A stretch of 64,000 bases of DNA from Nitrososphaerota archaeon (GTDB lineage: Archaea > Thermoproteota > Nitrososphaeria_A > Caldarchaeales > Calditenuaceae). Shown here in pieces: positions 262 to 22,725 of this stretch. The notes under the pieces were generated by a model. The model saw nothing but the letters and a program-made list of their open reading frames with translations. It did no database searches and was not told where the DNA came from. The DNA is taken from NCBI GenBank assembly GCA_038845265.1, contig JAWBQR010000002.1:32001-96000 (forward strand), read 5' to 3'. Both the position numbers and the translations under genes were made by a program. Each line of letters begins with the position of its first letter. Position 1 is the stretch's first letter.

Positions 262-370
262 TTTCACATCAAATTTATCAAATAATGAGTTATATATATG
301 CATTTCCAAACATATAAATTACTGACAAGACGGATAGTATAATAACTATTTATTAAAATTTTCTATAATT

Positions 371-1549: not shown

Positions 1550-1609
1550 AAATATTATGTTAACTTATTCCTTTTTATAAGCCTTAAACAATTTTAAAAT
1601 GATGAATCA

Positions 1610-2350: not shown

Positions 2351-2394
2351 TAATAAAGCTTAATTTAAGCTAACTATCTACTAATGATGGGGGT

Positions 2395-3873: not shown

Positions 3874-3889
3874 ATAAATTAAGGACCAA

Positions 3890-5122: not shown

Positions 5123-5193
5123 ATCTTATCCTTCAGTGGGCATATCAAGGCAGTATTTAAGAGCATTTCAAATTTTAACACTCTGAAAAGGTG

Positions 5194-5436
5194 TTACTCC
5201 GAGTACTCGAGCTGTATGTACATTATGTTGTTTCCTCTTATGAGTATATAGGGATAGTTTGCTCTTCTGTCATTGTTGTAAAATTCCGTCGCCTTCTCGA
5301 GCACTAAATTCATGTAGTTATCAGTCTCGAGCATGACGCCACTATATGCCACCTCATTCTTCAAAGTGACCTTTATGGGCTTATCGATGTATTTCTTAAT
5401 CAATGTAAGAGGCTTTACTCCGAATTCATTGCTCAA
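5194..5436 (-). CDS. Sm/Lsm-like RNA-binding protein
   Basis: Sm1 motif V.LKN...Y.G.....D.YMNLVL and Sm2 motif IRGNN. Confidence 0.9.
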   Translation of the reverse strand: MSNEFGVKPLTLIKKYIDKPIKVTLKNEVAYSGVMLETDNYMNLVLEKATEFYNNDRRANYPYILIRGNNIMYIQLEYSE

Positions 5437-5479
5437 CTTGTTATTCAGATATTGCTCTGAATAACGCTAATTTAAGCAT

Positions 5480-6070
5480 TTACTTGAAGATCCTAGAGGC
5501 TAGGTCTGGAGATACTTCAAGCTCGCTGAAGCATAGTCCGCAGATATATATGTTATCGCCCAGCTTTGCCGCCTTAGCTAGATTGCCTCCACATACAGGA
5601 CAGGCTTTTTCAGGATTGCTTTCTATCTCAAGCCTGGCTCCACACTTAGTACAATTTGTTGATCCTAGGGGTAGCGTCTCTCCGCAAGAAAGACAAATAA
5701 TCGTCGTTCCTGCGGTTTTAACCTTGATTAGAGAAGCTTCTTTCTTAACACCCTGCTCCTGTAATTCTCTTTTATTTTGAGGCGTTCTGGCTGGGCTCTC
5801 GGATTCTACACCTAAACTTCTAGATAATTCTTCTTCAACTTCATGGTTGTCGACTCCAGTAATTTCGAGTTCTCTCATTTGTGTCTGTAATTCTGCCTGC
5901 CTAATCATCTCCTTAACGCCATCTCTGAAGACCATAAGCCCACTAATAGTTACGGGAGCACCACAGATGGCAAGCAGTAGATAGAGAGGAATCTCTGGAA
6001 AAATTTCTTGGCTAAGAATAGGGCCTATTCCTTGCTCAGCTACGGCCATGTATATAAGTGTAGGGATCAA
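5480..6070 (-). CDS. Membrane protein with C-terminal double zinc ribbon (true start possibly CTG at 6124 or 6127)
   Basis: Hydrophobic N-terminus and four CxxC pairs; the frame stays open to 6133 with GGTGA upstream. Confidence 0.65.
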   Translation of the reverse strand: MIPTLIYMAVAEQGIGPILSQEIFPEIPLYLLLAICGAPVTISGLMVFRDGVKEMIRQAELQTQMRELEITGVDNHEVEEELSRSLGVESESPARTPQNKRELQEQGVKKEASLIKVKTAGTTIICLSCGETLPLGSTNCTKCGARLEIESNPEKACPVCGGNLAKAAKLGDNIYICGLCFSELEVSPDLASRIFK

Positions 6071-6212
6071 CGTAATACCTAGCCCTAATCCAGAAATTAA
6101 GAGTCCAAGCGTGGTCTTAGCCAGCAGTCTTCTTCACCCTCTTAATTCCAGTATTAGTAAATATTAAAGTATATTTCATAATTCATCTAGCCTTGAAAAT
6201 CGCTTCAGAAAT

Positions 6213-7103
6213 TCATCGCTTCCTGTACTCTCTAAGCTTGTTAGTAAGCACTTCAAAATATTTGTCTCTATTAATAATTAAGTGATGTCTTTTCACGAAG
6301 AAGTCAATTATATTTGATAAATCGCGCACTAAATATCTCTCAGCCATTCTATGTGTAGGTCTCACCCATTGCGGCCAATCAATTATAACTATCTCATCAT
6401 TATTCTTTAGCAAGACGTTGTAAGCGCTTAGATCGCAATGTATTACCCCAGCCTCTAATGCCATCTCAATCGAATTTATTATGGACTCGAAAATTCTCAT
6501 CGGCCTTTCTAATTTTTTAATCTTAGGTAATGGGTCACCTTCAATCAGAGACGTAACGATTACGTGTCTATTCCTAGATATTGGCAGCGGAGAAGGAACG
6601 TTGTTTAAAGATAAAATCTTGAGAGCTTCTATCTCTTTTGCAGCCGTTCTTTTTGATGCTTCTAGATAACTCGGATGAGTAATTACCTCATCCCTAAACC
6701 GCACATACTTCTTCATGCTCGGACTCCCAATTCGATAAAACTTCACAGCAACTACATTCTTCTCAGAGGTCATACCGACGTAGATCTCTGCCTCTTTCCC
6801 AATTCCTATCTTTGAGCCGATGAAGCTCAAGATTCCTCTTCTTGATAAGGCGATAAGAGCGAGCGTATCTAACCCATTAAAATTTAACGTGAAACCCTTT
6901 TCTCTCCCTTTGGGTGCCCATATAAGATGCTTAGAGTGTAGTTCGTCAATAAGCTTACTAATATATTCCCTAGACTTATTAGTCTTTCTTGCTATTTGCT
7001 CTATGGAGACGATATATTTTGAACGCATAAAGTCCTCTATAGTCCTTAGTATCATTACGTGGTCATCAGTCATCTCTGCGACAAAGCTAGCAATCTCTCT
7101 CAA
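6213..7103 (-). CDS. rio2: RIO2-family serine/threonine kinase
   Basis: N-terminal wHTH, GIGKEA, HCDLSAYN, IIDWPQ. Confidence 0.9.
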   Translation of the reverse strand: MREIASFVAEMTDDHVMILRTIEDFMRSKYIVSIEQIARKTNKSREYISKLIDELHSKHLIWAPKGREKGFTLNFNGLDTLALIALSRRGILSFIGSKIGIGKEAEIYVGMTSEKNVVAVKFYRIGSPSMKKYVRFRDEVITHPSYLEASKRTAAKEIEALKILSLNNVPSPLPISRNRHVIVTSLIEGDPLPKIKKLERPMRIFESIINSIEMALEAGVIHCDLSAYNVLLKNNDEIVIIDWPQWVRPTHRMAERYLVRDLSNIIDFFVKRHHLIINRDKYFEVLTNKLREYRKR

Positions 7104-7149
7104 GAACGTAATCTATTAATAAGTGAGGCATTTATTATTATTTTTTGGT

Positions 7150-10100
7150 TTATTTTGCAAGACAAATTATTGCATAATTATCATTAATTTTCCATTCTTT
7201 AATGTATCCCATGTCTGGACTAGGGGGCTCTCTTAAGAAAGTAAGTCTCGTCCTAGTTTCTTCCTCTATGTAGTCTGTCATCTGCCTGATATAGTCACTA
7301 ACTGTTGGTGAGTCAAGATAAATCATGCATTGAGCCTCCTGTGTTATTTCGAGTTTTAGCTCTTTCCTCATTACCTGTATACGTCTTATTAATTCATTGG
7401 ATATTGATACAGCTCTCAACCTTTGATCTTCTCTTAGATCGATGTATACCTTTCCAAACTTTCCCTCTCCCATTACTAAATATTCAGGAAGACTCTCAGT
7501 AAACACTACGTCACCTTCTTCTAATTCAAAGACCGACTTATCAGGTAAGACTAGCTCATACTTCTTGCCCGACTCAAATGTGTCTGAAACTTCTCGAGGC
7601 TTTAAATTCTTTAGAGCCTCAATTACTAGTGGCAAACGTTTACCAGCCTTAGGGCCAAGTCTTGAAAGAACAGGCTCAACCTTAATGACTGTCTCCACTG
7701 GTATCTTAGATGGCTCTAATATTTCTAAAGAAAAGCAGTTTATTTGTCGCATTAGGTAATTCCTGAACTTCTCGCAAGCCTCCTTAACCCTATACGTGTT
7801 AGGAGAAATTATCACTCTTAATACTGGCCACCTTAATTTTCTTTTGCCACGCTGCCTAGCATTTAGCGATGCCGTTATGATATCTTCTACTATCTGCATC
7901 GCGTCCTCCAGTTCCTGGTCAATTAACCTATCGTCTGGCCTAGGCCATTTGTTAAAATTAACGCTTTCAGGAAGACTCTTTGACCTGAGAAGTTGATAAA
8001 GATATTCAGAGATGTATGGAGCGAATATTGAAAGTACAATTAAGTAACGTATAATAACGTAATATAGCGCAGCATATGATGCTAACTTCTGAAACGTTCG
8101 CTCCTCGGCCCAGAATCTTCTCCTCACAGCTCTTACATATGTTCTGCTAAGATCTTCCGATGCGAATTTCAAAATCGCCCTTGCAGCTTCATGAAACTCA
8201 AATCTTTCGATAGCCCCTGTTATGTATCTTATAAGTGAATTTATACGAGAAACAAGCCATCTATCTTCAGGCTCAGCATAAGGAAGCATCGCTTCTAGTC
8301 CTTCTCTCTCCGGATCATATCTGTCCAGATCGAAGTAAGTCTTGGCAAATGATACAACGTTCCAGAGTATGTTGAGTGTTGACTCTACCTGCCTGACTTC
8401 CTCAGGATCAAAGTTAATTGAGTCCCAAGGCTGAGCCTTGGAGAGTATGTAGAGCCTAAGATTATCTACACCCCACCTCTCAAAGGCCTCTGAAGCCCAT
8501 ATGACGTTTCCTCTGCTCTTTGACATCTTTTTTCCCTCCTTATCAAGAACATGTCCCTGATTAAGCACAACCTTATACGGTGCCTTCTCAAACATCAATG
8601 CAGACGTAAAAAGTAAAGTGTAAAACCAACCACGGGTCTGGTCTATCGCCTCAGTGATGAAGTCATAGGGAAAGAGACGCTCAAAGAGCTTCTTGTCAGA
8701 TAAATAATCAATACTGGCGAAATGTGCCACACCTGAGTCAAGCCAAGTATCTAGGACGAAGGGCTCTCGCTTCATCTCTCCGCCGCACTCTTTGCATCTA
8801 AAGATGAATTGATCTATCCAAGGCCTATGAAGCCTAATTACGGGTGGCTTGACGTCAGCTTGCAATAACTCTTCTTTTGAACCTACAACCTTGATGGCCC
8901 CGCACTTCTCACATGTCCAGACGTTGAGAGGTGTCCCCCAAATTTTTGTCCTAGAAATGCACCAGTCCTCAGCATTCTGCAGCCACTCCCCAAATCTACT
9001 CTCGCCGGCCCAAGGAGGATACCACTTCACCTTCGAGTTCTCTTCTATCATTATCTTCTTGATTCTATCAACTTTGAGAAACCACTGCCTACTGGATAGG
9101 TAGATGAGTGGCGTGCCGCATCTCCAGCAGTGGGGATAGCTATGTATGATTCTATCCTCATGAAATAGTAGTCCTTTACTTCTCAAGATATCGAGTATGA
9201 TTATTGATGCTTCTTTGTGGTATAGATCCTTAAGGTTGCCTGCCTCTTGCGTGAAGTATCCTGACTGATTTATTGGGCATAGGACTGGAAGTCCATATAT
9301 CCGGCCAAGCTCGAAGTCCTCGGGCCCATGTCCAGGCGCTATATGTACTAGCCCAGTCCCTTCTTCCATCGATACGAATTCTGCCGGAAGAACAGTGTGT
9401 GCTGGCTCGAGATGTGTACCATGTATTGATACCTCCTCAGCGAGTGGATGAATATATCTTAGGCCGACCAGTTCATCTCCTGAAAGTCTTCTAACTATTT
9501 GGTAATTCTTCCCAGTTATTGTAGTAACTTTTTCGAGGAGCTTTGCAGCTACGATTAGCCGCTCTCCATCGATGAGGACTTCAAGGTATTCTTCGTCTGG
9601 GTGGACGGCGACAGCTTCATTTGCGGGTAGGGTCCATGGAGTTGTTGTCCAGACAAGTAGGCTTGCATCACGGTCAGCCAGCTTGAACTTAACGTATATG
9701 GAGTAGTCTTCGATTTCTTCGTATCCTTGGGCGAGTTCGTGGGATGATAGTGGTGTCTCGCAGCGTGGGCATACCGGTACTACCTTGTAGCTTAGGGTTA
9801 GGTCGCCTTCTTGGTATGCTTTTTTGAGGAGGTGCCAGACGTGTTCCATGTATCTTTCTTTTCTTGTTTCGTAGGCGTTGTCGTAGTCTAGCCATAGGGC
9901 GAGTCTTTCTGAGTCTTTTCTCCATTTCTCGATGTAGTAATCGACGAGTTTGTTTGCTTCTTCGACGAATTTTTCGAGTCCTATTTTTTCTTCTATGTCT
10001 CGTTTTGTGAGTTTTTGGGTGCCGAGTTGTTCCATTAGTCTTTTTTCTACTTCTATCTCTGTTGGGAGTCCTTGGCAGTCCCATCCTGCTCTTCTCCAGA

Positions 10101-11638: not shown

Positions 11639-12601
11639 TCATCGTGTTACATGCGTTCCTGCTTTTCCATTTATGGCATCTATTAATTGGTTTAGGTCCG
11701 CTATTATGGCTTCTTCTCCACCATTCTCGATGAATCTTACTGCCGCTATTATTTTTGGCAACATGCTTCCTTCAGCGAAGTGTCCTTCTTTAATGTATTG
11801 CTTAAGCTCCTCGACGCGTATTTTTTCGATCTTCTTTTGATTTTGCTTCCCGAAGTTGAGGTATGCTGCATCTATATCTGTCAGAATAACAAATTTGTCA
11901 GCTCTAACCAGTGAGGCGAGCCTCTCGCCTGCTAGGTCCTTGTCTATTACAGCATCAACACCCTTTAGTCCTTCATCGGTCTCAATGACTGGTATGCCGC
12001 CGCCTCCACACGCCACTACTACAAATCCAGTCTCTACTAGTCTCTTTATTGCGTCTCCCTCAATTATCTCTTTCGGGTCGGGTGATGGAACGACTCTTCT
12101 CCATCCACCTCTCGCCTTATCTTCCTTAAACACGTATTCTGGATGCTCCTTTTTTATCTCCTCCATCTCTTCTTTAGCGTAGAATGGGCCGACTGGCTTC
12201 GTTGGGTTCTTGAATGCTGGGTCTTCGCGATCTACTAGAACTCTTGTAACTACGGATACTACGCCCTTATTTATTGCTCTCTTTCTAAACTCATTTCCCA
12301 ATGCTTGTTGGATCATGTATCCAATGAATCCTTGAGTCTCAGACCCACAGACGTCCATAGGGAAGGCCGGAATCTCATAGACCTTCTTACCTGCTTCGTG
12401 TCTAAGGATAGTCGCTCCTACTTGAGGACCGTTTCCATGCGTGATAACAATCTTGTAATTCTTCTCGACTAAGTCCGCTAATATTTTTGCGGTTTTCCTG
12501 ACATTTTCATACTGTTCTTCAAAGCTGCCATCTTGTCCCCGTCTAAGAAGAGCATTACCTCCTAAAGCTATAACTACGAGTTTTTCGGTCCCACTTCTCA
12601 T
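11639..12601 (-). CDS. arcC: Carbamate kinase
   Basis: ALGGNA, HGNGPQVG, PTKPVGPFY, RRVVPSP, GGGGIPV, VIDKD, GSMLPK. Confidence 0.95.
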   Translation of the reverse strand: MRSGTEKLVVIALGGNALLRRGQDGSFEEQYENVRKTAKILADLVEKNYKIVITHGNGPQVGATILRHEAGKKVYEIPAFPMDVCGSETQGFIGYMIQQALGNEFRKRAINKGVVSVVTRVLVDREDPAFKNPTKPVGPFYAKEEMEEIKKEHPEYVFKEDKARGGWRRVVPSPDPKEIIEGDAIKRLVETGFVVVACGGGGIPVIETDEGLKGVDAVIDKDLAGERLASLVRADKFVILTDIDAAYLNFGKQNQKKIEKIRVEELKQYIKEGHFAEGSMLPKIIAAVRFIENGGEEAIIADLNQLIDAINGKAGTHVTR

Positions 12602-12715
12602 ATTGTATTACTTAAAAGTGCTGAAATTTATAACTAATGATGTGGTTTAAGTGTTGTTTTTTACTACATTTATTAAAATTTATATTATACATCAGATCAA
12701 TTTAACCGAGGCTTC

Positions 12716-13768
12716 ATGAGTGTTCCATCTTATGTCGGATCTATGAAAGGTAAGGACTTCATTAATACAAATGACTTTACACAGGAGGAGATACATGCAA
12801 TAATTAAGGCTGCCATGGATTTGAGGGAGAAGTATTGGTCAAGAGTCCCGACGAACTATCTGCAAGGAAAAACACTATTTATGCTGTTCTACAATAGGTC
12901 TCTGAGGACTAGGAATTCTTTCGAGGCAGGGATGCATCAGCTTGGAGGACACGCTCACTTCCTCAGCCCACAGGATGTATATACTCCTACCCTTCCAGAA
13001 GACATGATACCTTATCAGACTGAAGCTATAGCAGATGTGGCCCGCGTCCTAAGCAGGTATGGAGACGCCATCGCTATTAGGATTTATGGCGATGCCGCTA
13101 AATGGGTCATAGGCAGGGGAAATAGAGTGATACAGGAGTTTGCTAAGTGGAGCACTATTCCTGTATTAAACATGGAGGATGACATCTACCATCCATTTCA
13201 AGCACTAGCAGACATGATGGCGATTATGCAGGTGGCTCCAAAGCCTAAGGGAAAGAAGTTCGTCGTATCCTATGCTTATTCAGGTGGGCTTAAACCACTT
13301 GCTGTCCCTCAGAGCTGCGTCTTAATAGGGACGCAGTTTGGAATGGACGTAGTGCTGGCACATCCTCCCGGATTTGAGTTAGAAGACCATGTCATAAAGG
13401 CTGCTAAAGAGAACGCCGACAGGTATGGCGGAAGCTTCACGGTAGTAAACGACATGAAGGAGGCTTTCAGGGATGCTGACTTTGTGTATCCAAAGGCATG
13501 GTCTCCGAAGAGGTTCTTCCCACCCTACAACTCCAAGGTGGATAAGGAAGGCGCCATGGAGTATCAGAACAGATTCAAGGACTGGATCTGTACCCAGGAA
13601 TTGATGGATTTAACGAATAAGGGTAAATACATGCATTGCGGGCCTGCTGACAGAGGCCAAGAGGTCGTTGACGAAGTAATAGATAATCCTAACTACTCTC
13701 TTTACTTTGAGCAGGCTGAGAATAGGCTGCACGTCCAGAAGGCCGTAATGAGCATGGTCATGGGGTAG
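12716..13768 (+). CDS. Carbamoyltransferase (ATCase/OTCase superfamily), YgeW/N-acyl-OTC-like
   Basis: SLRTRNSFE, HPFQ, AYSGGLKPLAVPQ loop, HCGP in place of HCLP, QAENRLH. Confidence 0.85.
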   Translation: MSVPSYVGSMKGKDFINTNDFTQEEIHAIIKAAMDLREKYWSRVPTNYLQGKTLFMLFYNRSLRTRNSFEAGMHQLGGHAHFLSPQDVYTPTLPEDMIPYQTEAIADVARVLSRYGDAIAIRIYGDAAKWVIGRGNRVIQEFAKWSTIPVLNMEDDIYHPFQALADMMAIMQVAPKPKGKKFVVSYAYSGGLKPLAVPQSCVLIGTQFGMDVVLAHPPGFELEDHVIKAAKENADRYGGSFTVVNDMKEAFRDADFVYPKAWSPKRFFPPYNSKVDKEGAMEYQNRFKDWICTQELMDLTNKGKYMHCGPADRGQEVVDEVIDNPNYSLYFEQAENRLHVQKAVMSMVMG

Positions 13769-13780
13769 AGAGGTTCGGAA

Positions 13781-14827
13781 TTGCCGAGAGTAGTTGTGCC
13801 ACCTGCTGCAAAATCGATACTTGACGCGATCGGAAACACGCCGCTGGTAAGGCTCAGCAGAATACCCAGCAGTGAGGGAATCAAGAGTAACATCTGGTGC
13901 AAGCTTGAGTACTTCAACCCAAGTGGGAGTCTTAAGGACAGACCATATCGAGAGATGATACTGAACGCGATCAAGAGAGGCGACCTAAAGCCGGGAATGG
14001 AGATAATCGAAGTATCGACAGGGAACGCGGGAATAGCATGCACATTCATCGGGACCCTACTCGGCTACAAGGTGACCATAGTCATGCCTGAGGGAATGAG
14101 TGAGGAGAGGAAAAAGCTTATCAGGGGTCTCGGCGGAGAAATAATATTCACGCCTGGAGCAGAGAGCGACGTAGACCTAAGCATAGAGAAGGCTAAGAAA
14201 CTCATAGAAGAGAACCCGGGAAAATACTGGATGCCTAATCAATACGACAACCCAGACAACATTGCGGCTCACTACAGGACCACCGGGCCAGAAATCTGGA
14301 GACAGCTTAAGGGAAAGGTAGATGCATTCGTAGCCACCCAGGGAACTGGGGGAACCATAAGTGGTGTTGGGAGATACTTAAAAAAGATGAGAAAAGGTGT
14401 CAAGATTTATGCAGGCGAGCCGACCGAGGCCCCGATGCTCGCTTATGGCAAGTGGGGCTCCCATAGAATCGAGGGCATAGGAGACGGATTCGTCCCTAAA
14501 AACCTAGACCTAAGCATACTCACTGGAGTAATATTGGTAAGGTCCGACGAGGCAATAGAGATGACGAAGAGGCTGATAAGAGAGGAAGGAATATTCTGCG
14601 GAATCTCCTCCGGAGCAAACGTCGTCATGGCAATAAAGCTCGCAAAGAAGCATCCAGAACTAAAAAACATCGTAGCAATGATCAATGATAATGGATATAG
14701 ATACTTCTCTACCGCGGTCTTCGGCGTCGAGAAGGAGATCAGCATACCTGAGCGCGAACACCCAATGGACGAATACACCCGAAAACAGCTCGAGATCCAT
14801 CAGCCCAGATGGGAGATAATCGAGTAG
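13781..14827 (+). CDS. Cysteine synthase-family PLP enzyme
   Basis: IGNTPLV, NPSGSLKDR, STGNAG, GTGGT, IEGIG, GISSGA. Confidence 0.85.
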   Translation: MPRVVVPPAAKSILDAIGNTPLVRLSRIPSSEGIKSNIWCKLEYFNPSGSLKDRPYREMILNAIKRGDLKPGMEIIEVSTGNAGIACTFIGTLLGYKVTIVMPEGMSEERKKLIRGLGGEIIFTPGAESDVDLSIEKAKKLIEENPGKYWMPNQYDNPDNIAAHYRTTGPEIWRQLKGKVDAFVATQGTGGTISGVGRYLKKMRKGVKIYAGEPTEAPMLAYGKWGSHRIEGIGDGFVPKNLDLSILTGVILVRSDEAIEMTKRLIREEGIFCGISSGANVVMAIKLAKKHPELKNIVAMINDNGYRYFSTAVFGVEKEISIPEREHPMDEYTRKQLEIHQPRWEIIE

Positions 14828-14870
14828 CAATCATTTTCAACGCTTAAGACAAACCCGAGGGTAATTATTT

Positions 14871-16124
14871 ATGAACAATGAATTTCTCGAGAGGCTTATC
14901 TGCTCTAAGTGCGGAAGGGAATACTCGCCAGAGTCAAATCCACTTATGTGCATCAACAAGGATAAAGGGAGACTGGACATCGTTTACAACTACTCTGCAG
15001 TTTCTCAGAGACTGACAAGGGACGAGCTTGGAAGGAGGGAGACCAGCGGTGTCTGGCGGTACTGGGAGCTCCTACCAGTCAGCAAGGAATACGCGGTATC
15101 CCTCGGCGAAGGCAATACACCACTCATCAAGGCGGAGAGACTCGCAGAGAAGCTCAGAACCAAGAAGCTATACCTAAAAGACGAGACAAGAAACCCCTCC
15201 TCCTCATTCAAGGACAGAGCCATGACCATAGGCGTGAGCAAGGCGGTCGAGATGAGGGCAGACACCGTGGTAACCGCGTCGAGCGGAAACGCAGCCGCAG
15301 CCCTCGCTGCCTACGCTGCGAGAAGTGGATTAAGATGCGTCGCATTTGTCCCCGAAGATGTTGCCGCCGGAAAAGTATCGCAGCTACTTCTTTACGGCGC
15401 AAGGGTCTTCAGGGTCAAGCAGGTCGAGGAGGGAGTGGACCCAACTGTCCAACTAATGATCCTTACTCACGAGAAGCTAAACTGGTATACTTGCCCAAGC
15501 TTCGGGCCATTCAATCCCTACCAAGTAGAGGGACCGAAGACGATGCTATACGAGATAGTCGAGCAGCTGGGCTGGAGAATACCAGACTTCATCTTCGTAC
15601 CAACAGGGTCAGGATGCCTAATCACGGGGCTATGGAAGGCATGCATGGACCTGAAGAATATTGGACTCATGGATGAGTATCCTAGGCTAGTCTTGGTTCA
15701 GCCGACTGGAAACATGCCTCTTGTCGATGCGCTTAAGCGAGGACTCTCCTTCTCAGAGATAAGGCCCACGCCATATCCACACTCAGTTGCTTCGGGTCTC
15801 CTCGACCCCTACCCATGGGACGGAGACCTAGCCCTCGAGGCTGTTAGGAAGACTGGTGGTGCAGGCGTAGCAGTATCTGACGAGGAGATAATGAATGCCG
15901 TCAAGATGCTCGCGGGACTCGAGGGAGTCTTCGCCGAGCCCTCAGGCGCAGCGGGGCTTGCAGCCCTATTAAGGCTGCTCGACGAGGGAGTAGTTTCACC
16001 TAGTGATGAATCAGTCGTCCTAGTGACTGGGTCGGGCTTGAAGGAGCCGGAGAAGATCGTAAGGCTGTATCCTGAGACCCCGCTGATTGAGCCTAGCCTT
16101 GAGGAGGTCCTTAAGCGTATATAG
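14871..16124 (+). CDS. Threonine synthase-family PLP enzyme
   Basis: N-terminal CxxC, GEGNTPL, NPSSSFKDR, SSGNA, PTGSG, EPSGAA, TGSGLK. Confidence 0.85.
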   Translation: MNNEFLERLICSKCGREYSPESNPLMCINKDKGRLDIVYNYSAVSQRLTRDELGRRETSGVWRYWELLPVSKEYAVSLGEGNTPLIKAERLAEKLRTKKLYLKDETRNPSSSFKDRAMTIGVSKAVEMRADTVVTASSGNAAAALAAYAARSGLRCVAFVPEDVAAGKVSQLLLYGARVFRVKQVEEGVDPTVQLMILTHEKLNWYTCPSFGPFNPYQVEGPKTMLYEIVEQLGWRIPDFIFVPTGSGCLITGLWKACMDLKNIGLMDEYPRLVLVQPTGNMPLVDALKRGLSFSEIRPTPYPHSVASGLLDPYPWDGDLALEAVRKTGGAGVAVSDEEIMNAVKMLAGLEGVFAEPSGAAGLAALLRLLDEGVVSPSDESVVLVTGSGLKEPEKIVRLYPETPLIEPSLEEVLKRI

Positions 16125-16829
16125 TTACCACTCGCTGTGGACGAGTTTGCTGAATAAGCCTACTTTGCTAATGTTTAGTCTCATTGCGAGGATAGTCTCA
16201 GCGAGCTTTACACCGGCCTTGACGGGGTCTATTACTGGCATATCCAATTTTTTTGAAAGCTTTTCATCATAACCGGCTAGGCCAGCGCATCCAAGTATCA
16301 AGACCTCTGCGCCCCTACTTCTTGCTCTCTCTCCTGCCTCCACTAAGGGCTTTAGAACTTCTTCTTCACTCATTCTGTCTACATCGACTACTGATAATTT
16401 CATAGATTCTATTGATGCGAGCCTCTTCTCCAATCCGTACCTAAAGACCATGTTTTCCATCAGTGGGATTGCCTTTTCTGAGACGGCTAGTATCGAGTAC
16501 TTCCAGCCAAGGGCTAATGCCATTAGTATTGAGCTCTCACCTATGCCCAGTACCGGTATGTCTAGAATCTCTCTCAATGCATACATTCCTGGGTCGTCGA
16601 AACATGCTATTACTACGGCGTCAATTTTTCCTAGGCTTGGACGTATGACCTCCCTGATAATATTGATGGTTGAGGTCGCTTCATCCATGAAGGACTCTAT
16701 TGCCTCTGGCCCAGATTCAGGATTCTTCACAATTACTTCAACATCCTTAGATGCTGCCTGTCTTGCACTTTTCTCTATCATATACGTCATGTGTCGCGAT
16801 GTGTTTGGATTTACTAACAAAATTTTCAT
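16125..16829 (-). CDS. Hydantoin racemase (Asp/Glu/hydantoin racemase family)
   Basis: NPNTS..MT, IACFDDPG and LGCAG catalytic cysteines, PVIDPV. Confidence 0.88.
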   Translation of the reverse strand: MKILLVNPNTSRHMTYMIEKSARQAASKDVEVIVKNPESGPEAIESFMDEATSTINIIREVIRPSLGKIDAVVIACFDDPGMYALREILDIPVLGIGESSILMALALGWKYSILAVSEKAIPLMENMVFRYGLEKRLASIESMKLSVVDVDRMSEEEVLKPLVEAGERARSRGAEVLILGCAGLAGYDEKLSKKLDMPVIDPVKAGVKLAETILAMRLNISKVGLFSKLVHSEW

Positions 16830-16888
16830 ATAAAAAAATTTATATCTTAGGTAAATAAATCTTTTTCGAGAATAATCAATTATGGTGA

Positions 16889-18244
16889 ATGTCTATGTCT
16901 TTAACATACATAAAGAATGGTAATGTTATAACAAGGTACGGATTGATTAAGGGTGGAAGCATTCTTATTTCTGATGAGAGGATAGCGGCAATAGTCAAAG
17001 GCGAAATCCCAGTTCAGGCAGACATAGTCATAGACGCGGACTCAAAGCTAATCTTACCAGGAGCCATAGATGTGCATCCCCATATAGATGATCCAAACTT
17101 CTTTGAGGGCAGAGAAGATTTCGAGACTGGTACGAGATCTGCGATAGTGGGTGGAGTTACCTCAATGGTTGAAATGCCCACTTGGAATCCAGTCCTAGAA
17201 AAATCAGTCATAGAGAATAAGATTGATAGAGGGAAGAGAATGAGCTATATTGACTTTAAGCTTCATGCTGGAAATGTCCGAGAAATATTAGACGAATCTG
17301 TCGTTAATGAACTCGAGAAGCTTGGAGTAATGTCTTATAAGACATTCACCTGCGATCCATACCTCTGTACAGACTATGTGATTCATGAAAACTTTAGAAA
17401 GTATGCTGATAGTGGGATAATATTCATGTTTCATGCAGAGAATAATGAGATTTTGAATGGTGTTAAGAAGGAGTTTGATGATAAAAAGATGAAGTCAGCG
17501 CGCTATCATCACTTGACTAGGCCATCGATCGCCGAGGTAGAGGCTGTAAATAGGATTCTCTTATTGGCCGAAAAGACTAATGCACAGATATATTTCGTTC
17601 ATATTAGTCTAGGCGAGTCTGTAAGGCTGATTAATGAGGCCAAGACGAGGAATGTTAAGGTCAAACTAGAGACGTGCCCCCACTATCTCTACTTTACTGA
17701 TAAGGACATGGAGAGGCTAGGGCCATACCTCAAGGTGAACCCCCCGGTCAGGACCGAAGATGATAGGAAAGCATTGATCAACTATCTAAATGCCGGCGTA
17801 GTAGACATAATTGCTAGTGATCATTATCCCACCTTCAAAGATGAGAGAGAGCCAGGATGGGAAGATATGGATAGAGTGAGGTCGGGGCTTCCTGGAATAG
17901 GAACGCTTTATCAATCAATAATCAACCTAATGCTAAATAATATTCTTAAGCCTGAGGTAGTTGTTAAAGTCCTTTCTGAGAATCCTGCTGAGATATTTAA
18001 GATCTCTGACAGAAAGGGCGGAATAGCTGTTGGAAAGGACGCGGACCTAGTTATACTTGATCCTAAAAGAGAGGTTCGAGTTACTCCGGAGAAATTCTTA
18101 ATCCATAGTGGCTGGACTCCCCTTGATGGAAGAGTATTCAAAGGCTATATAGAGAAGGTCATACTTAGGGGAGAAGTCGTAGTAGAAGACTATGAAATCA
18201 AAGCGAGAAAACCTGCAAAATATATAGGGACAGCCTTGTCTTAG
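16889..18244 (+). CDS. Cyclic amidohydrolase, L-hydantoinase/allantoinase-like
   Basis: PG.IDVHPH, GGVT..VEMP, HAEN, ETCPHYL, GPYLKVNPP, SDH, GKDADLV; lacks the HxHxR arginine of dihydroorotases. Confidence 0.8.
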   Translation: MSMSLTYIKNGNVITRYGLIKGGSILISDERIAAIVKGEIPVQADIVIDADSKLILPGAIDVHPHIDDPNFFEGREDFETGTRSAIVGGVTSMVEMPTWNPVLEKSVIENKIDRGKRMSYIDFKLHAGNVREILDESVVNELEKLGVMSYKTFTCDPYLCTDYVIHENFRKYADSGIIFMFHAENNEILNGVKKEFDDKKMKSARYHHLTRPSIAEVEAVNRILLLAEKTNAQIYFVHISLGESVRLINEAKTRNVKVKLETCPHYLYFTDKDMERLGPYLKVNPPVRTEDDRKALINYLNAGVVDIIASDHYPTFKDEREPGWEDMDRVRSGLPGIGTLYQSIINLMLNNILKPEVVVKVLSENPAEIFKISDRKGGIAVGKDADLVILDPKREVRVTPEKFLIHSGWTPLDGRVFKGYIEKVILRGEVVVEDYEIKARKPAKYIGTALS

Positions 18245-19980
18245 GATACTTCGATACTATTCATGAATTCATCGACAGTTAAGATATCGCCCGGCATGCC
18301 ATACTCGCGTAGAGATTGCGACAAAAGTGTTACCTGAGTCGGTCTGACAAAGGTCTTTTTGAGTACCTCAGTATTGCTGAGCACCTCGTTTGTCGGGCCA
18401 TCTAGTAAGATCTTCCCCTCGGCCAATGCGATTGTCCTCCTAGCCCACCTAGCGACAATCCACATCTCATGAGTAATGATTATAATCGTATGTCCCATCT
18501 CGTTCAGCCTTTGTAGGAAGTTCATCACGTCTATGCTTTGAGGCGTGTCCTGACCTGTGGTCGGCTCATCAACGATAAGTACGTCGGGCTTCATGGCTAA
18601 AACCGATGCTACGGCAATCCTCTGCCTCATGCCCTTACTCATTAGGAATGGATGCTCGTCTAAGATGTCTTCCGGAACCCCAGTTATCTTTATACTTTCA
18701 CGGATCCTTTGCTCTATCTCTTCTTCCTTAACTAGTCCAAATGACAACAAGTTCCTTAGGCCGAACTCAAGCTCCTTTCTGATCGTATCATTAAAGATCT
18801 GATGGTCAGGGTTCTGGAACACGTATCCAACCTTGGATATTAGCCTCGGCGTCGGAGTTACCCTAGTATCCATGCCAAAAATCTTAACCGACCCAGACGT
18901 AGGTTTATAAATTCCAGCTATGAGCTTCGAGAGTGTCGTCTTCCCAGAACCATTTTGACCAATTAGCGCTATGAACTCTCCCTTCCTAATCTTAAGGTCT
19001 AATCCTCTCAGAGCAACTGTTCCATCTGGATAGACATAATGTAAATTATCAACTTCTACTGCAGTTTCATCTCCTAAATGAGCCGGAGGCATCCGAGTGT
19101 CCGTCCGCTTCTTATTAGGCATTATCCTTCTCTCACTGAATAATCTCGCTAAGGACTCTACTGCCTCCTCGAGGCTCAGCGTTATATTTCCAAGTAGGTT
19201 ACGCTTCTTTAGGTATCCCGAAATAGCGCAGACATCCGGCACCCTCACTCCATTCTCGATCAAGAAGTCAGGGTCTGAGAAGAACTTCTCAGTCGGAGCA
19301 TCTAGAAGGATCTCGCCATCCTTTAAAAGAATGAATCTATCCGCAATTCTAGCAAGCTCCTCCAAATGATGCTCAACGACAATAATTGTCTCTACGAGTC
19401 TCTGCCTCTTCATGGATGTGATAATTTCCATGATCTCGTCCTTTCCTATCGGATCGAGCATAGAGGTGGGCTCGTCAAGCACCATAACTTTCGGACTCAT
19501 AGCCAAGGTAGCGGCCAATGCAGTTCTCTGTTTTTGGCCCCCTGAGAGCTCGACAGGGTCCTTCATCCTGAATTCCGATAGGCGCGTCATCTCCAACGCC
19601 CATGAAACCTTGTCCCTCACCTCTTCAGGCCGGTATCCTAAGTTCTGAGGACCAAAAGCAACCTCTTCATCGACTCTCGAAAGAAGGAACTGAGTCTCAG
19701 GATCCTGGAAGGTCATGCCGACAAATGCGCAGAGCGCCGCCACCTCAGTCGACGCAGTATCTTGGCCTAGAACCCTGACTCTTCCCTTCATTGCGCCCCT
19801 TTGTGAATGAGGAATAAGACCATTAAACGTAGATACTAATGATGATTTTCCCGAATCATTAGGCCCGGTTATTACTACGAACTCCTCGGGATTTATCTTG
19901 AGATTTATTCCTTTTAGGACCCAGTCCTTAGAATACTCGTATCTCCACCATAAATCCTCAATCTCTATGACGGGCTCCAT
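18241..19980 (-). CDS. ECF transporter fused double ATPase (EcfA-A')
   Basis: Two ABC domains (GPNDSGKS/LSGGQ and GQNGSGKT/MSKGM) with FQDPE and FQNPD Q-helices. Confidence 0.9.
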   Translation of the reverse strand: MEPVIEIEDLWWRYEYSKDWVLKGINLKINPEEFVVITGPNDSGKSSLVSTFNGLIPHSQRGAMKGRVRVLGQDTASTEVAALCAFVGMTFQDPETQFLLSRVDEEVAFGPQNLGYRPEEVRDKVSWALEMTRLSEFRMKDPVELSGGQKQRTALAATLAMSPKVMVLDEPTSMLDPIGKDEIMEIITSMKRQRLVETIIVVEHHLEELARIADRFILLKDGEILLDAPTEKFFSDPDFLIENGVRVPDVCAISGYLKKRNLLGNITLSLEEAVESLARLFSERRIMPNKKRTDTRMPPAHLGDETAVEVDNLHYVYPDGTVALRGLDLKIRKGEFIALIGQNGSGKTTLSKLIAGIYKPTSGSVKIFGMDTRVTPTPRLISKVGYVFQNPDHQIFNDTIRKELEFGLRNLLSFGLVKEEEIEQRIRESIKITGVPEDILDEHPFLMSKGMRQRIAVASVLAMKPDVLIVDEPTTGQDTPQSIDVMNFLQRLNEMGHTIIIITHEMWIVARWARRTIALAEGKILLDGPTNEVLSNTEVLKKTFVRPTQVTLLSQSLREYGMPGDILTVDEFMNSIEVS

Positions 19981-19997
19981 TCAGACACCTCTCCCCC

Positions 19998-20870
19998 CTA
20001 CATGAACGGATTTGCAACTAAGCCATAAAACCTGGCGACTAATAAGCCTATAAACGCCAATACGAGCGTGACTATTATCACAGTGTCCGAGCCAGAGTAT
20101 CTCCAATAATACTTACCAACGTAGCTTTCTTTAAGCATCGCCTTCTCCTCGAGCAACTTTATCTTGAGTGGAGCCTTAAACGCCCTAGACTCCATCGTAA
20201 CTCCAGCATCAATCGCCTTCTTTATAGTAATAGCCACGAGAGGTATTAAGTAGTATCCGAATACGAATGGTCTCCTCCAGAGTGGCTGGGACTTAATATC
20301 TAGGCCTCTTGCCTTTTGAGCATCTTGAATCGTATTGAAGTCCGAGTCAAACATCCCTATGAACCTGAACGCCATCGTGAGATAGGTCCTAGCTACGTAC
20401 GATATATTCATCTTCTCAAAGGCACTCATAAGGTCCGACGTCGTTGTTATCGAGAGCCACAACAGCATGGCACTGACCAGGGCAAACATTCTGACATAAA
20501 CCATGACGCCGAATCCAAGCGCCTGACTATAAACCTCGACGGGACCTATAGTGGCTATGACGGTCGGAGACGGACCTGCTACCGACCTCCCAAAAAAGAT
20601 CACCGAGACAAATATGAAGAGTGCCAGAGTCATGAGGACCTTAAAGTATTTCTCGACATGCATAAGAGTTGCTTTAAATATCTTCATCAAAATTATATTG
20701 AAGAAGCCGAATAATGCATTATAAATTGGATTATCAATTATTATTGGATAGGCATTAAAAAATAAGAGGATTAAGATCTTAGTGATAGGGCTCATCCTAT
20801 TGGCGATAGACCTTGCATCAACGTATGAAAAAAAGGTTCTATATCTAGTAGCTATCTGCTGAGCACTCAC
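19998..20870 (-). CDS. ECF transporter T component
   Basis: Membrane helices plus ARG and ESR(A) coupling motifs. Confidence 0.88.
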   Translation of the reverse strand: MSAQQIATRYRTFFSYVDARSIANRMSPITKILILLFFNAYPIIIDNPIYNALFGFFNIILMKIFKATLMHVEKYFKVLMTLALFIFVSVIFFGRSVAGPSPTVIATIGPVEVYSQALGFGVMVYVRMFALVSAMLLWLSITTTSDLMSAFEKMNISYVARTYLTMAFRFIGMFDSDFNTIQDAQKARGLDIKSQPLWRRPFVFGYYLIPLVAITIKKAIDAGVTMESRAFKAPLKIKLLEEKAMLKESYVGKYYWRYSGSDTVIIVTLVLAFIGLLVARFYGLVANPFM

Positions 20871-20874
20871 CTGG

Positions 20875-21462
20875 TTACCACCAATCTGGGAATACGTAGA
20901 CCCGTGTCCTCTTGACGTATGGAGTAGCGATCTTCAGTATTAGACTCCCAAAGACTATCGCGGGCCAAGTGTTACCGATGAACCAGCCTGCCCAGAAGAG
21001 TGGCTGTGCCTCCCAGGTAAATAGTCCCCATAGTACAAAAGCAGTGGTTCCGAGAGTTGCACCAATTGCGTTCTGCAGGACACAACCTATCAATATCCAT
21101 GCGAGCCAGTCCTTCCTAGTCTTTAGCTCTGGGTTAAGCTTGAACCTTCTGAATACCCATGCCACGGTCCATGCTTGGAAGAAGTTTGCAGGGATCAGTG
21201 TGGCTGCTACATACATGGGGATTGCCTCCCCGATGGCGTCAGATATTATCGGGAAGAGAAACGCGACGATGACCCCCCACATACCGAACCATATTCCACC
21301 TATAGCCTGTAGAGCCATGGCGGGCCAGAACCCTGAGACGTAACCTCCTATCGGTAGCGACATACTACCATATGCACCAACGACAATGCAGATTCCGGTC
21401 CAAGCAGCTAAGATGCTGCCCATAGTCGCGGCCGTCCTTTTTGGACGATAAACCTCGGTCAT
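20875..21462 (-). CDS. Putative ECF S component (substrate-binding membrane protein)
   Basis: About 195 aa, highly hydrophobic, co-oriented directly upstream of ecfT; GAGGTGA RBS before ATG 21462. Confidence 0.65.
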   Translation of the reverse strand: MTEVYRPKRTAATMGSILAAWTGICIVVGAYGSMSLPIGGYVSGFWPAMALQAIGGIWFGMWGVIVAFLFPIISDAIGEAIPMYVAATLIPANFFQAWTVAWVFRRFKLNPELKTRKDWLAWILIGCVLQNAIGATLGTTAFVLWGLFTWEAQPLFWAGWFIGNTWPAIVFGSLILKIATPYVKRTRVYVFPDWW

Positions 21463-21472
21463 GTCATTCACC

Positions 21473-21592
21473 TCATATCTTTCCATAGTAGATAAATATT
21501 AGTATTATGCCTACTATCAAGATAATCAGCGAGATCGCCAGCAATGCAGAATCGCTTAATCCAATTTTCTTTTTTTCTATTATTTTTTTCAT
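21473..21592 (-). CDS. 39-aa single-TM micro-protein MKKIIEKKKIGLSDSALLAISLIILIVGIILIFIYYGKI
   Basis: Manual translation; GAGGCGA RBS; TTTATATA box about 30 nt upstream; stop overlaps the RBS of the next gene. Confidence 0.65.
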   Translation of the reverse strand: MKKIIEKKKIGLSDSALLAISLIILIVGIILIFIYYGKI

Positions 21593-21687
21593 ATCGCCTC
21601 GAAAAATACAAGTTAGGGATATATATAAACATTATGTTAAAAAATTAATTAATTGTAGATAATTCTTCTCTCAATCTTTGTTAGTAT

Positions 21688-22725
21688 CTACCTGTATAGT
21701 TGTTCACTCATGGTGACTGCCATAACTGCTGATTTAACGTACAGGCCGTTCTCGGCTTGTTCATATATGACTGAGCGGGGGCCATCCATTACTTCGTCTG
21801 TCGCCTCCTGTCCGCGAAGAACTGGAAGCACATGAGTCACTATGCCTTTCTTATCCATTAGGTCCGTGAGTTCTTGGGTTAAGATCCAATTTTTGTATTG
21901 ATTGTGAATTTGTATCTCCTTCTCGACTCCGAATTTTGATGCTCCGACTTTTAGGAGTTCCCAGCTAGCCCAGCTTCTCGGGAAGACTACATGAGCTCCC
22001 TCAATTGCGGATTTGAGGTCTGTTGTTTCCTCAAAGGCTCCGCCACTTCTATCTGCATTTTCTTTTGCTATCTTGGCTATTTCAGGATCTATGTTAAATC
22101 CAGGTGGATGAGCTACTACGACATCCATTCCGAACCTCGTCATAATGAGCGCCTCTTCCTGTATGCTGCATAGTCCTCTGAGTTTTGAGGCATATCCCCA
22201 CATGATTACGTACTTCTTTCTCTTAATGTCTCCAAGTTTTTCACGTACGGTCATGAGGTCCTGCATGCCTTGAGTTGGATGAAATGAGCAGCAACCCATG
22301 TCAATTACTGGAATCTCTGCATGTTTTGCATATTCCATTACTGTTGCTCTTCCGAGACCATATTTATAATCTATCGCGTCGTCTAAACATCTGACACCCA
22401 TGCCATGTCCATATCTTTCATACATCTTAGCGACGTCTTTAACAGCCTCTCCGAAGCCGACTCTCAGCGTCGAGACATCTATATATGTTCCATGTCCTCC
22501 GAGCAAGCTTGCTCCAGACTCGAATGCCGCCCTAGTCCTAGTTGATGGCGCATAAAATATGGCGAAGAAGCTTTTTCCTTCAAGTAGTTTTGGAAGAGGT
22601 TCTCTTTTACGATATTTTTCTTTAAGTTCTTTTGCTAGTTTTAATGTCTCTTCTATCTCCTCTATACTCCAATCTTGAGTAGATATCAGGTCTCGGCCGT
22701 ATAAATTAACGCTTATGCTGACCAT
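21688..22725 (-). CDS. Second atypical carbamoyltransferase (ATCase/OTCase superfamily)
   Basis: STRTRAAFE, HPTQ, HVLP in place of HCLP, QAENG. Confidence 0.85.
   Translation of the reverse strand: MVSISVNLYGRDLISTQDWSIEEIEETLKLAKELKEKYRKREPLPKLLEGKSFFAIFYAPSTRTRAAFESGASLLGGHGTYIDVSTLRVGFGEAVKDVAKMYERYGHGMGVRCLDDAIDYKYGLGRATVMEYAKHAEIPVIDMGCCSFHPTQGMQDLMTVREKLGDIKRKKYVIMWGYASKLRGLCSIQEEALIMTRFGMDVVVAHPPGFNIDPEIAKIAKENADRSGGAFEETTDLKSAIEGAHVVFPRSWASWELLKVGASKFGVEKEIQIHNQYKNWILTQELTDLMDKKGIVTHVLPVLRGQEATDEVMDGPRSVIYEQAENGLYVKSAVMAVTMSEQLYR

Follow-up and report, generated by a model that had tools for sequence, protein, structure and literature searches.

A candidate ATP-yielding hydantoin and ureide catabolic cluster in an archaeon of the Calditenuaceae

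A ten-gene block and the families it encodes

We analysed a block of ten genes at positions 11639-22725 of a 64,000-nucleotide stretch of contig JAWBQR010000002.1 (hereafter, the window), from the genome of a Nitrososphaerota archaeon of the family Calditenuaceae. The genes encode a carbamate kinase (CK), two paralogous carbamoyltransferases (CT1 and CT2), two pyridoxal phosphate (PLP) enzymes, a racemase, a cyclic amidohydrolase and an energy-coupling factor (ECF) importer. An earlier note on this DNA, made from the sequence alone, had listed the same content and read it as one system that would open cyclic ureides and recover ATP from their carbamoyl groups. The ten open reading frames and their families were confirmed, with short gaps between genes; the carbamate kinase stop codon (11639) and the CT2 start codon (22725) bound the block:

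11639..12601, minus strand: carbamate kinase, CK (TIGR00746, arcC)
12716..13768, plus strand: carbamoyltransferase CT1, of knotted AOTCase/YgeW-like type (OTCace_N and OTCace domains)
13781..14827, plus strand: CysK-like PLP enzyme of fold type II (PALP, TIGR01139)
14871..16124, plus strand: ThrC-like PLP enzyme of a cluster-specific clade (NF006050)
16125..16829, minus strand: hydantoin/allantoin-type racemase (PF01177)
16889..18244, plus strand: cyclic amidohydrolase, hydantoinase-like (Amidohydro_1)
18241..19980, minus strand: fused ECF ATPase, EcfA-EcfA' (TIGR04520 and TIGR04521)
19998..20870, minus strand: ECF T component, EcfT (PF02361 CbiQ)
20875..21486, minus strand: ECF S component, EcfS, of no named family, a putative substrate-binding subunit (structural matches and gene position)
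21688..22725, minus strand: carbamoyltransferase CT2, a paralog of CT1 (OTCace_N and OTCace domains)

CK is divergent from CT1 across a 114-bp gap, CT1 forms an apparent operon with the CysK-like and ThrC-like genes (gaps of 12 and 43 bp), and 201 bp separate the gene of a 203-residue membrane protein, the S component of the list, from CT2. Housekeeping genes flank the block, with IleRS and MTAP on one side and MptE, MptA, AspRS and IlvD on the other. Pfam and NCBIfam found no arginine deiminase (ADI), agmatine deiminase or N-carbamoylase gene within the block, in agreement with the earlier note, and no M20 or CN-hydrolase gene; no arginine-biosynthesis genes adjoin it.

CT1 and CT2 are 41% identical to each other, and neither reaches the cut-off of any NCBIfam equivalog model. 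The best model for CT1 is that of AOTCase (281.1 against a cut-off of 288) and for CT2 that of OTCase, TIGR00658 (207.7 against 280.85; CT1 scores 228.6). Against cut-offs of 500, the YgeW model TIGR03316 gives 163.9 and 139.9 and the PTCase model 213 and 183 for CT1 and CT2, respectively, and identity to Escherichia coli YgeW is 34% and 29%. By score, neither would be classed as YgeW, OTCase, PTCase or ATCase. Catalytic motifs are intact in both (SLRT, HPFQ and HCGP in CT1; STRT, HPTQ and HVLP in CT2), and both are without the DxxxSMG motif of OTCases, the RxQxER-type region of ATCases and the H(T/S)LP motif given for UGTCase. CT1 has a proline-rich loop, KPLAVPQ, that aligns with KPLSVPQ of YgeW; the corresponding loop of CT2 is poorer in proline. 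Compared with YgeW and OTCase, CT1 has nine extra residues in the 80's loop, and the 120's loop is longer in both transferases. In the parts of a transcarbamylase review that we draw on, a proline-rich loop and an extended 120's loop are marks of knotted transcarbamylases (PMC4581275), and CT1 and CT2 appear to carry the signatures of this knotted group (AOTCase, SOTCase and YgeW type).

The predicted structure of CT1 (pLDDT 96.7) is closest, among solved structures, to AOTCase, with TM scores of 0.88-0.93, an rmsd of 1.7-1.9 Å and 36% identity. In a printed alignment, CT1 keeps the Glu and Lys that align with E144 and K252 of AOTCase, a pair assigned to second-substrate binding in AOTCase and SOTCase; the YgeW equivalents, Q160 and K270, anchor the substrate carboxylate (both from the same parts of PMC4581275). 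CT1 departs from AOTCase at SMRT, which reads SLRT, at Trp77, which is a Tyr, and at HCLP, where Gly replaces the Leu. Since N-carbamoyl and N-acetyl groups are isosteric, a CT1-type pocket shaped for amino acids that are N-alpha-acylated and carry a distal amine might also accept 3-amino-2-ureidopropionate.

Quick LG+G4 tree searches, with SH-aLRT as the only support measure, place CT1 in one clade of 76 sequences (support 94) and CT2 in another of 41 (support 100). Together with E. coli YgeW, the two group apart from the OTCases (support 95), while YgeW is sister to CT2 at 88, on long branches that leave the pairing unsure. Members shorter than 300 residues (3 of 122) were left out of this tree, which is without AOTCase, SOTCase, PTCase and UGTCase sequences; the placement of CT1 relative to AOTCase comes from HMM scores, the ranking of PDB structures and the one printed alignment. 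Of the kinship to YgeW that the earlier note had proposed to check by trees, separation from the OTCases stands, and orthology to YgeW does not by NCBIfam score.

CK scores 431.8 bits with TIGR00746 (cut-off 358.25) and is 45% identical to E. coli YqeA. The CysK-like enzyme gives 259 bits with PALP and 365.5 with TIGR01139 (cut-off 350.95), and the ThrC-like enzyme 338.5 with NF006050 (cut-off 303). The 44 cluster-linked ThrC-like proteins group in a single clade (SH-aLRT 99, members below 350 residues left out), which stands apart from this genome's four other ThrC-like genes, to which identity is 31-42%.

The racemase matches PF01177 at 185 bits, and its best solved relatives are the allantoin racemases 3qvj and 5lfd (125 and 117 bits). 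It has only two cysteines, at 76 and 181, a numbering that we take to be that of the catalytic pair of a characterised hydantoin racemase. The amidohydrolase is almost equally close to the allantoinase, dihydroorotase, hydantoin-5-propionate amidohydrolase and dihydropyrimidinase models (280-306 bits). Its best NCBIfam model is allantoinase (306 against a cut-off of 631), with pyrC_multi, a domain model, at 303 against 279 and D-hydantoinase at 279.8 against 393. Among solved structures the best relative is the L-selective Arthrobacter hydantoinase 1gkr (222.7 bits), ahead of D-hydantoinases, dihydroorotases and allantoinases (the last at about 167 bits), and the metal-site residues HxH, K, H, H and D align with those of E. 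coli HyuA. The fused EcfA-EcfA' passes the cut-offs of both TIGR04520 (452.6) and TIGR04521 (450.7), and EcfT matches PF02361 CbiQ at 67.6 bits. No Pfam family covers the 203-residue membrane protein. The structures closest to its AlphaFold model (pLDDT 74.8) are the S components BioY, RibU and ThiT (TM 0.55-0.69, Foldseek E 7e-3), and 'ECF S component' is the automatic name of its nearest clusters in the ESM Atlas. These weak-E fold matches, together with the position of the gene, support its assignment as a putative ECF S component.

The rest of the genome (1.37 Mb, 93% complete, from sequencing runs labelled hot springs metagenome) bears on whether these genes serve biosynthesis. Four OTCace_N genes are present, CT1 and CT2 included; the third is of OTCase type (STRTR, HPCQ, DVFVSMG, HCMP; argF) and the fourth of ATCase type (HPTQ, HPLPR; pyrB), so the earlier note's concern that CT1 or CT2 might be the sole argF or arcB is removed. 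Because carB is present, CK is not needed to make carbamoyl phosphate, and we rejected an anabolic role as its main role. Eleven PALP genes include four further ThrC-like genes and one further CysK/CysM-like gene. With these paralogs elsewhere, the block's genes appear surplus to biosynthesis. We also observed that five ThrC-like genes are spread over this small genome, on contigs C10, C4, C11 and C6 as well as at window 14871-16124, and that three of the four others also pass a threonine-synthase cut-off.

These data bear on the reading that the genes are side by side by chance or form an anabolic set, in which CK would supply carbamoyl phosphate to unusual transferases of the arginine pathway, such as an AOTCase, next to an ordinary cysK and thrC. 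The near miss of CT1 against the AOTCase cut-off, the fit of its model to AOTCase, the curated cysK and thrC cut-offs that the CysK-like and ThrC-like enzymes pass, and the housekeeping flanks (IleRS, MTAP, MptE, MptA, AspRS) would suit it, but the genome has its own carB, argF, pyrB and further ThrC and CysK paralogs, arginine-biosynthesis genes do not adjoin the block, and CT1 has SLRT rather than the SMRT of AOTCase and Tyr where AOTCase has Trp77. We consider this reading very improbable, a judgement that also draws on the distribution of the genes given below.

In two metatranscriptome libraries of a single study, assembled contigs 95-99% identical to the window span the region from CT1 to CT2, and individual contigs join CT1 to the CysK-like gene and the CysK-like to the ThrC-like gene; some bins were uncovered, and neither these nor depth are used here. 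We count this as a weak point in favour of the catabolic reading given below. Strand, level and transcript ends cannot be read from such contigs and DNA carry-over is possible, so they are compatible with expression and co-transcription and are proof of neither; two further runs in the comparison were classed as 'probably DNA'. Contigs of both libraries stop at window position ~21572-21575, ~90 nt upstream of the start codon of the S component (21486, minus strand). This shared end could be a transcript 5' end, though contigs cannot show that.

Recurrence in other archaea

Among 41 genomes of the same order, with E below 1e-100 taken as the mark of a CT1 ortholog, CT1 is present in 19. A CT2-type gene accompanies it in 18 of these, the exception being a genome that is 66% complete, and occurs in 0/22 genomes without CT1. 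CK is found in 21 of the 41, comprising 17 of the 19 with CT1 and four without. One of these four, from the window's own genus, seems to be without CT1 and CT2 only because its contig ends right after CK. That more than half of the sample (22/41) manages without the transferases also counts against an anabolic set.

In the sister family, all eight loci that we fetched share the order CT1, CysK-like, ThrC-like and CK, with CT2 convergent and adjacent; none of the eight has a racemase, hydantoinase or ECF gene. Identities to the window's genes are ~85% for CT1, 57% for CT2, 62% for the ThrC-like and 65% for the CysK-like enzyme. Among the relatives' loci compared, the full ten-gene arrangement occurs only in a same-genus genome. 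Beside CT2, the sister-family loci carry a molybdenum hydroxylase large subunit (XdhA the best model at 509 bits, below its cut-off) with 2Fe-2S and FAD subunits, and an amidohydrolase whose best NCBIfam model is SsnA (364 against 444). The earlier note had treated the block as one system; the conserved unit is instead its five-gene back end (CT1, CT2, CK and the two PLP enzymes), to which certain lineages have the racemase, hydantoinase and ECF genes added as a front end.

A wider scan, taking one genome per species, gave 80 CT1 loci. By record title, as no taxonomy tool was used, these comprise 25 Caldarchaeales-type, 10 Nitrososphaerales, 23 Desulfurococcales, 11 Bathyarchaeia, four Hadarchaeia and seven other loci. 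Neighbours were counted by tblastn with fixed criteria within ~10 kb of CT1, with these counts among the 80 loci:

CT2: 41
ThrC-like: 44
CysK-like: 39
CK: 34
XdhL: 29
XdhS: 30
XdhM: 27
SsnA-like: 26
Adenine deaminase: 17
PydA-like DHO_dh plus 4Fe-4S: 9
Luciferase-like: 8
Bmp nucleoside-binding protein: 8

At least one purine-type gene (Xdh subunits, SsnA-like, PydA-like or F420-type reductase, adenine deaminase, nucleoside ABC transporter) lies near CT1 at 57/80 loci, and at 51/61 among loci of at least 12 kb. As a control, the argF neighbourhoods of 19 CT1-bearing relatives hold such genes at 0/19. The earlier note would have been refuted had the genes not co-occurred elsewhere; they do. The recurrence of the gene set, together with this control, is more than chance, and the retention of the set with catabolic and transport genes across lineages, set against the empty control loci, again counts against an anabolic origin. 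With E. coli queries, a YgeY-like hydrolase lies near two of the 80 CT1 loci and a YgeX-like lyase near none, apart from one 20% match to a ThrC-like gene. One locus (L063) reads hydantoinase-like, adenine deaminase, SsnA-like, CT2, CT1, CK, SsnA-like, PydA-like, CysK-like, ThrC-like and M20 peptidase.

The S component, used as a query in a metagenome scan, gave 14 loci with homologs 60-100% identical to it. CT2-type genes are found at 11 of them, and racemase and hydantoinase together at eight; these two counts tie the importer family to hydantoin opening and to removal of carbamoyl groups, whether by transferases or, as at L131, by hydrolysis. Eight loci have S components 89-100% identical to the window's, three of them short fragments, and all but one (L130) keep the window's gene order wherever the contig reaches. 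At L130, where the S component is 89% and the other genes 50-66% identical, the genes are rearranged: CT1, CT2, ThrC-like, EcfT, EcfA, racemase, hydantoinase, EcfS and CK. At L134 (S component 69%), CT2, ECF, racemase, hydantoinase, a CT1-like gene and a ThrC-like gene occur in a different order, and CT2 lies beside ECF genes at L132, L133 and L135. L131 (positions 18-9818, S component 68%) pairs the ECF genes with an arylmalonate-decarboxylase-like racemase homolog, an M20 peptidase, a hydantoinase-like gene and a hydantoin racemase and has no transferase; it is a hydrolytic twin of the window's system. An MtmB-family gene adjoins this set.

The agmatine deiminase pathway was rejected as an account of the transferases. 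ADI was not found in this 93%-complete genome, and a gene of the agmatine-deiminase family (PAD_porph, 346 bits) lies at C2:100911-101912, ~5 kb past the window's right end and 47 kb from the cluster. It tracks taxonomy, not CT1 and CT2, being present in 15 of 18 same-family genomes (this one not counted), among them all eight genomes of genus g4, which are without CT1/CT2, and in 0/9 genomes of the sister family f4 that have them.

Several further features of these loci may be recorded. Most sister-family clusters have a V4R-domain gene, possibly a ligand-sensing regulator, between the CysK-like and ThrC-like genes (L015 10259-10687 and 12 other Caldarchaeum-type loci), and it is missing from the window's cluster. 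Directly upstream of CT1 on the same strand, L015 (5061-8047) encodes a major facilitator superfamily (MFS) transporter, a PNPOx-like flavoprotein and a UbiA-family prenyltransferase; these three genes recur at 16-17 of the 80 CT1 loci, all Caldarchaeales-type by clustering. A locus titled Methylomirabilota bacterium (L070) has an archaeal-type CT2-CK-CT1 arrangement with CT1 75% identical to the window's, which could be a binning error or a transfer. NCBI labels a CT1 protein 98% identical to the window's as Candidatus Nezhaarchaeales, in conflict with the nearest genome records, which are titled Caldarchaeum, Calditenuis, Pelearchaeum or Benthortus.

Known systems and a proposed route

Substrate-level phosphorylation from carbamoyl phosphate is known for arginine, agmatine, allantoin-derived oxalurate (OXTCase and AllK) and, since 2025, bacterial urate. 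Phosphorolytic ureide catabolism is thus already established (YgeW/YqeA, UGTCase with CK, OXTCase with AllK), and the principle is not new here. What is new is the archaeal setting, the paired transferase clades without a hydrolase, the ThrC-like and CysK-like enzymes in place of YgeX, and the front end of ECF importer, racemase and hydantoinase. We found no description of an archaeal version in the full-text literature searched; one paper on soil nitrifiers, in the portion consulted, concerns allFGH and allK, not this cluster.

The closest known system is the reductive urate pathway of E. coli and Clostridium, reconstituted in two 2025 studies, which we cite for the portions bearing on the gene set (10.1101/2025.04.24.650524; 10.1101/2025.05.19.654654). 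There, XdhD reduces urate to 2,8-dioxopurine, which is dearomatised by YgfK or, in C. difficile, by the PydA-like UacX; a luciferase-family F420 enzyme has been proposed to substitute for YgfK in Chloroflexota (Li et al., 10.1101/2025.05.19.654654). SsnA opens the product to ureidomethylhydantoin, and HyuA converts this to 2,3-diureidopropionate. In E. coli, YgeW and phosphate then strip one ureido group and YqeA makes ATP (Liu et al., 10.1101/2025.04.24.650524), the other group is removed hydrolytically by YgeY, and YgeX turns diaminopropionate into pyruvate. In the passages we draw on, the two papers give different accounts of the ureido group that YgeW attacks, and the SsnA network analysis there is limited to bacteria (10.1101/2025.05.19.654654).

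Like the 2,8-dioxopurine cluster of E. coli, C. sporogenes and C. difficile (xdhD-ygfM, ygfK/UacX, ssnA, hyuA, ygeW, yqeA, ygeY, ygeX), the archaeal set combines hydantoinase-type opening, a carbamoyltransferase with CK, and a PLP enzyme for the residual amino acid, and in archaeal relatives the back end adjoins Xdh-type, SsnA-like, PydA-like or F420-luciferase-type genes. Between them, the archaeal loci hold counterparts of every step of the bacterial pathway but YgeY and YgeX. Unlike the bacterial cluster, they have two transferase paralogs instead of one, and the second transferase with the ThrC-like and CysK-like enzymes stands in place of YgeY and YgeX. Neither hydrolase nor lyase is present in the block: an M20 gene elsewhere in the window (42156-43289) is of ArgE/DapE type (YgeY model 161 against 321), and a search of the genome for YgeX gave just a 21% match to a threonine-dehydratase-like gene. 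The earlier suggestion that a second transferase replaces YgeY fits these results and the rarity of YgeY-like and YgeX-like genes near CT1. This genome also differs from the bacterial cluster in being without the Xdh, reductase and SsnA steps and in having an ECF importer and a racemase, which the portions of the two bacterial studies drawn on here do not mention (10.1101/2025.04.24.650524; 10.1101/2025.05.19.654654).

The block resembles the classical Hyu system in its two-cysteine racemase, its hydantoinase near the Arthrobacter L-hydantoinase and a transporter encoded alongside, but it has no carbamoylase, and carbamoyltransferases and CK take that place. As in the ADI and agmatine deiminase pathways (OTCase or PTCase with CK), ATP would come from ureido phosphorolysis followed by CK. 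CT1 shares with the Xanthomonas campestris AOTCase (PDB 3kzk and others) the Glu/Lys pair, HPxQ and AENRLHVQKA, and unlike AOTCase it lies in a catabolic rather than an arginine-biosynthetic gene context.

We consider it reasonably probable that the block scavenges a hydantoin taken up from outside and breaks it down by an archaeal version of the lower 2,8-dioxopurine pathway in which both carbamoyl groups leave by phosphorolysis. The genes and their families, the intact motifs, the paralogy and the shared occurrence and order of the genes are observed; we infer the direction of flux, the substrate, what each PLP enzyme does and a yield of two ATP for every molecule. The ECF transporter with its new S component would import a 5-substituted hydantoin, most likely 5-ureidomethylhydantoin or a close cyclic ureide from anaerobic purine breakdown, and the two-cysteine racemase would interconvert the enantiomers, so that both could be used. 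The hydantoinase-like amidohydrolase would open the ring to an N-carbamoyl (diureido) amino acid. CT1 and CT2, running in reverse, would each move one carbamoyl group to phosphate, and from each carbamoyl phosphate CK would make ATP, with release of CO2 and NH3. The diamino acid that is left, probably 2,3-diaminopropionate, would be metabolised by the two PLP enzymes, ThrC-like and CysK-like, either to pyruvate and ammonia or to a different amino acid. Ureidomethylhydantoin is favoured because orthologs of the back end sit with SsnA and reductase genes in relatives, and because a beta-substituted alanine would give fold-type-II PLP enzymes a role.

Several observations weigh against this route. 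No Xdh match was found in this genome with a relative's XdhL protein as the query, and there is no SsnA ortholog: the one match is 31% identical and fits a chlorohydrolase/deaminase family best (283 bits; SsnA 162 against 444). With both missing, this organism seems unable to open purines by the known route, and the purine link rests on relatives; the earlier note's tie to the E. coli ygeW-type pathway is thus borne out by the genes beside the relatives' back end and finds no purine-opening enzymes here. The related genomes are non-independent samples, 23/80 CT1 loci have no purine gene within reach, CK is within reach at 0/10 Nitrososphaerales loci, and at some Bathyarchaeia loci the neighbours of CT2-CK-CT1 are unrelated genes, namely glycerate kinase, enolase, an aminotransferase and a diaminopentanoate-dehydrogenase-like gene. 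The near miss of CT1 to AOTCase counts here too, as does the fact that the CysK-like and ThrC-like proteins pass curated cut-offs for true cysteine synthase and threonine synthase; one pathway needs a single diaminopropionate lyase. Identity of the amidohydrolase to E. coli HyuA is only 27%, and to hydantoinase-like genes found in SsnA-containing clusters it is 34%. As proof of transcription, the RNA-library contigs fall short. Overall, the earlier note's interpretation is partly supported.

We also observed, at C6:77355-79738, a Bmp-type nucleoside-binding gene, 60% identical to the Bmp of relatives' clusters, beside an amidohydrolase of chlorohydrolase/deaminase type. The pair may be a nucleoside salvage or deamination unit.

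The relatives of the racemase and the best model of the amidohydrolase are allantoin-type, which keeps allantoin (5-ureidohydantoin) in play as the substrate of the same architecture; it would be opened to allantoate and phosphorolysed to ureidoglycine and carbamoyl phosphate, with the second transferase acting on a later ureide. A precedent exists in Rubrobacter xylanophilus, where, in the part of the study we rely on, a phosphorolytic allantoate route with an adjacent carbamate kinase was shown in vitro (Barba et al. 2013, PMC4016543). The route proposed here would share with it a cyclic amidohydrolase followed by diureido-acid phosphorolysis, and CK is adjacent in both. A Bathyarchaeia locus with the same importer type, where glycerate kinase, enolase, GlcD and GlcF lie by CT1, would suit glyoxylate-derived carbon. 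Unlike the Rubrobacter transferase, CT1 and CT2 fall by their signatures in the knotted AOTCase/YgeW group and carry HCGP and HVLP, neither having the H(T/S)LP motif that the review, in the parts drawn on, gives for UGTCase (PMC4581275), and the uricase-pathway genes of the Rubrobacter cluster have no counterpart in the window's. The allantoinase model score is 306 against a cut-off of 631, and the L-selective hydantoinase outranks allantoinases among solved relatives. Allantoate breakdown offers no obvious substrate for the ThrC-like and CysK-like enzymes, and the ThrC-like gene travels with the importer, racemase and hydantoinase in diverged loci; in relatives, CT1, CT2 and both PLP genes sit with reductases and SsnA-like genes, which points to a reductive route. 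We regard allantoin as an unlikely substrate.

The Bathyarchaeia locus just mentioned, L103 (4752-14436, on a contig shared with L133), has the same ECF type and CT2-CK-CT1 followed by glycerate kinase (DUF4147/MOFRL), enolase and a GlcD/GlcF-like oxidase; ThrC-like and CysK-like genes are not within reach there.

Nor need the substrate derive from a purine. Transferases cleaving an N-carbamoyl amino acid could serve a dihydropyrimidine, dihydroorotate or carboxymethylhydantoin, hydantoin-5-propionate or a C4 diureido compound. The nearly equal scores of the amidohydrolase across four model types and the lack of Xdh and SsnA in this genome agree with such a substrate, a four-carbon diamino acid would suit the gamma-elimination chemistry of ThrC, and the review, as far as consulted, leaves catabolic transferases for carbamoyl-aspartate or carbamoyl-beta-alanine possible (PMC4581275). 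Yet the ATCase and OTCase signatures (RxQxER-type region, DxxxSMG) are in neither transferase, the genes that recur most strongly next to the back end are purine-related, adenine deaminase and Xdh among them, and two transferases suggest a substrate with two ureido groups. In our judgement a non-purine ureide is improbable.

Meaning for the archaea concerned

If the preferred route, phosphorolysis of an imported purine-derived hydantoin, is extended to the other lineages, the Caldarchaeales, non-ammonia-oxidising Nitrososphaerales, Bathyarchaeia, Hadarchaeia and Desulfurococcales might ferment purines reductively, with the paired transferases taking both ureido groups off 2,3-diureidopropionate by phosphorolysis for two ATP per purine, and the ThrC-like clade replacing diaminopropionate ammonia-lyase. 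The window's organism might then be a cross-feeder on hydantoin through a new S-component family, having lost or never had the ring-opening steps and taking up hydantoin leaked by its neighbours. This extension is tentative, and we hold it to be rather doubtful.

If true, the proposed route would bring ATP-yielding use of purine ureides to abundant, mostly uncultured archaea of hot springs, soils and sediments and would double the ATP gain per molecule relative to the E. coli scheme. It would give functions to three clades that have none assigned, CT1, CT2 and the ThrC-like enzymes of the cluster, and to a new ECF S component, and it would name substrates that could help to bring these archaea into culture.

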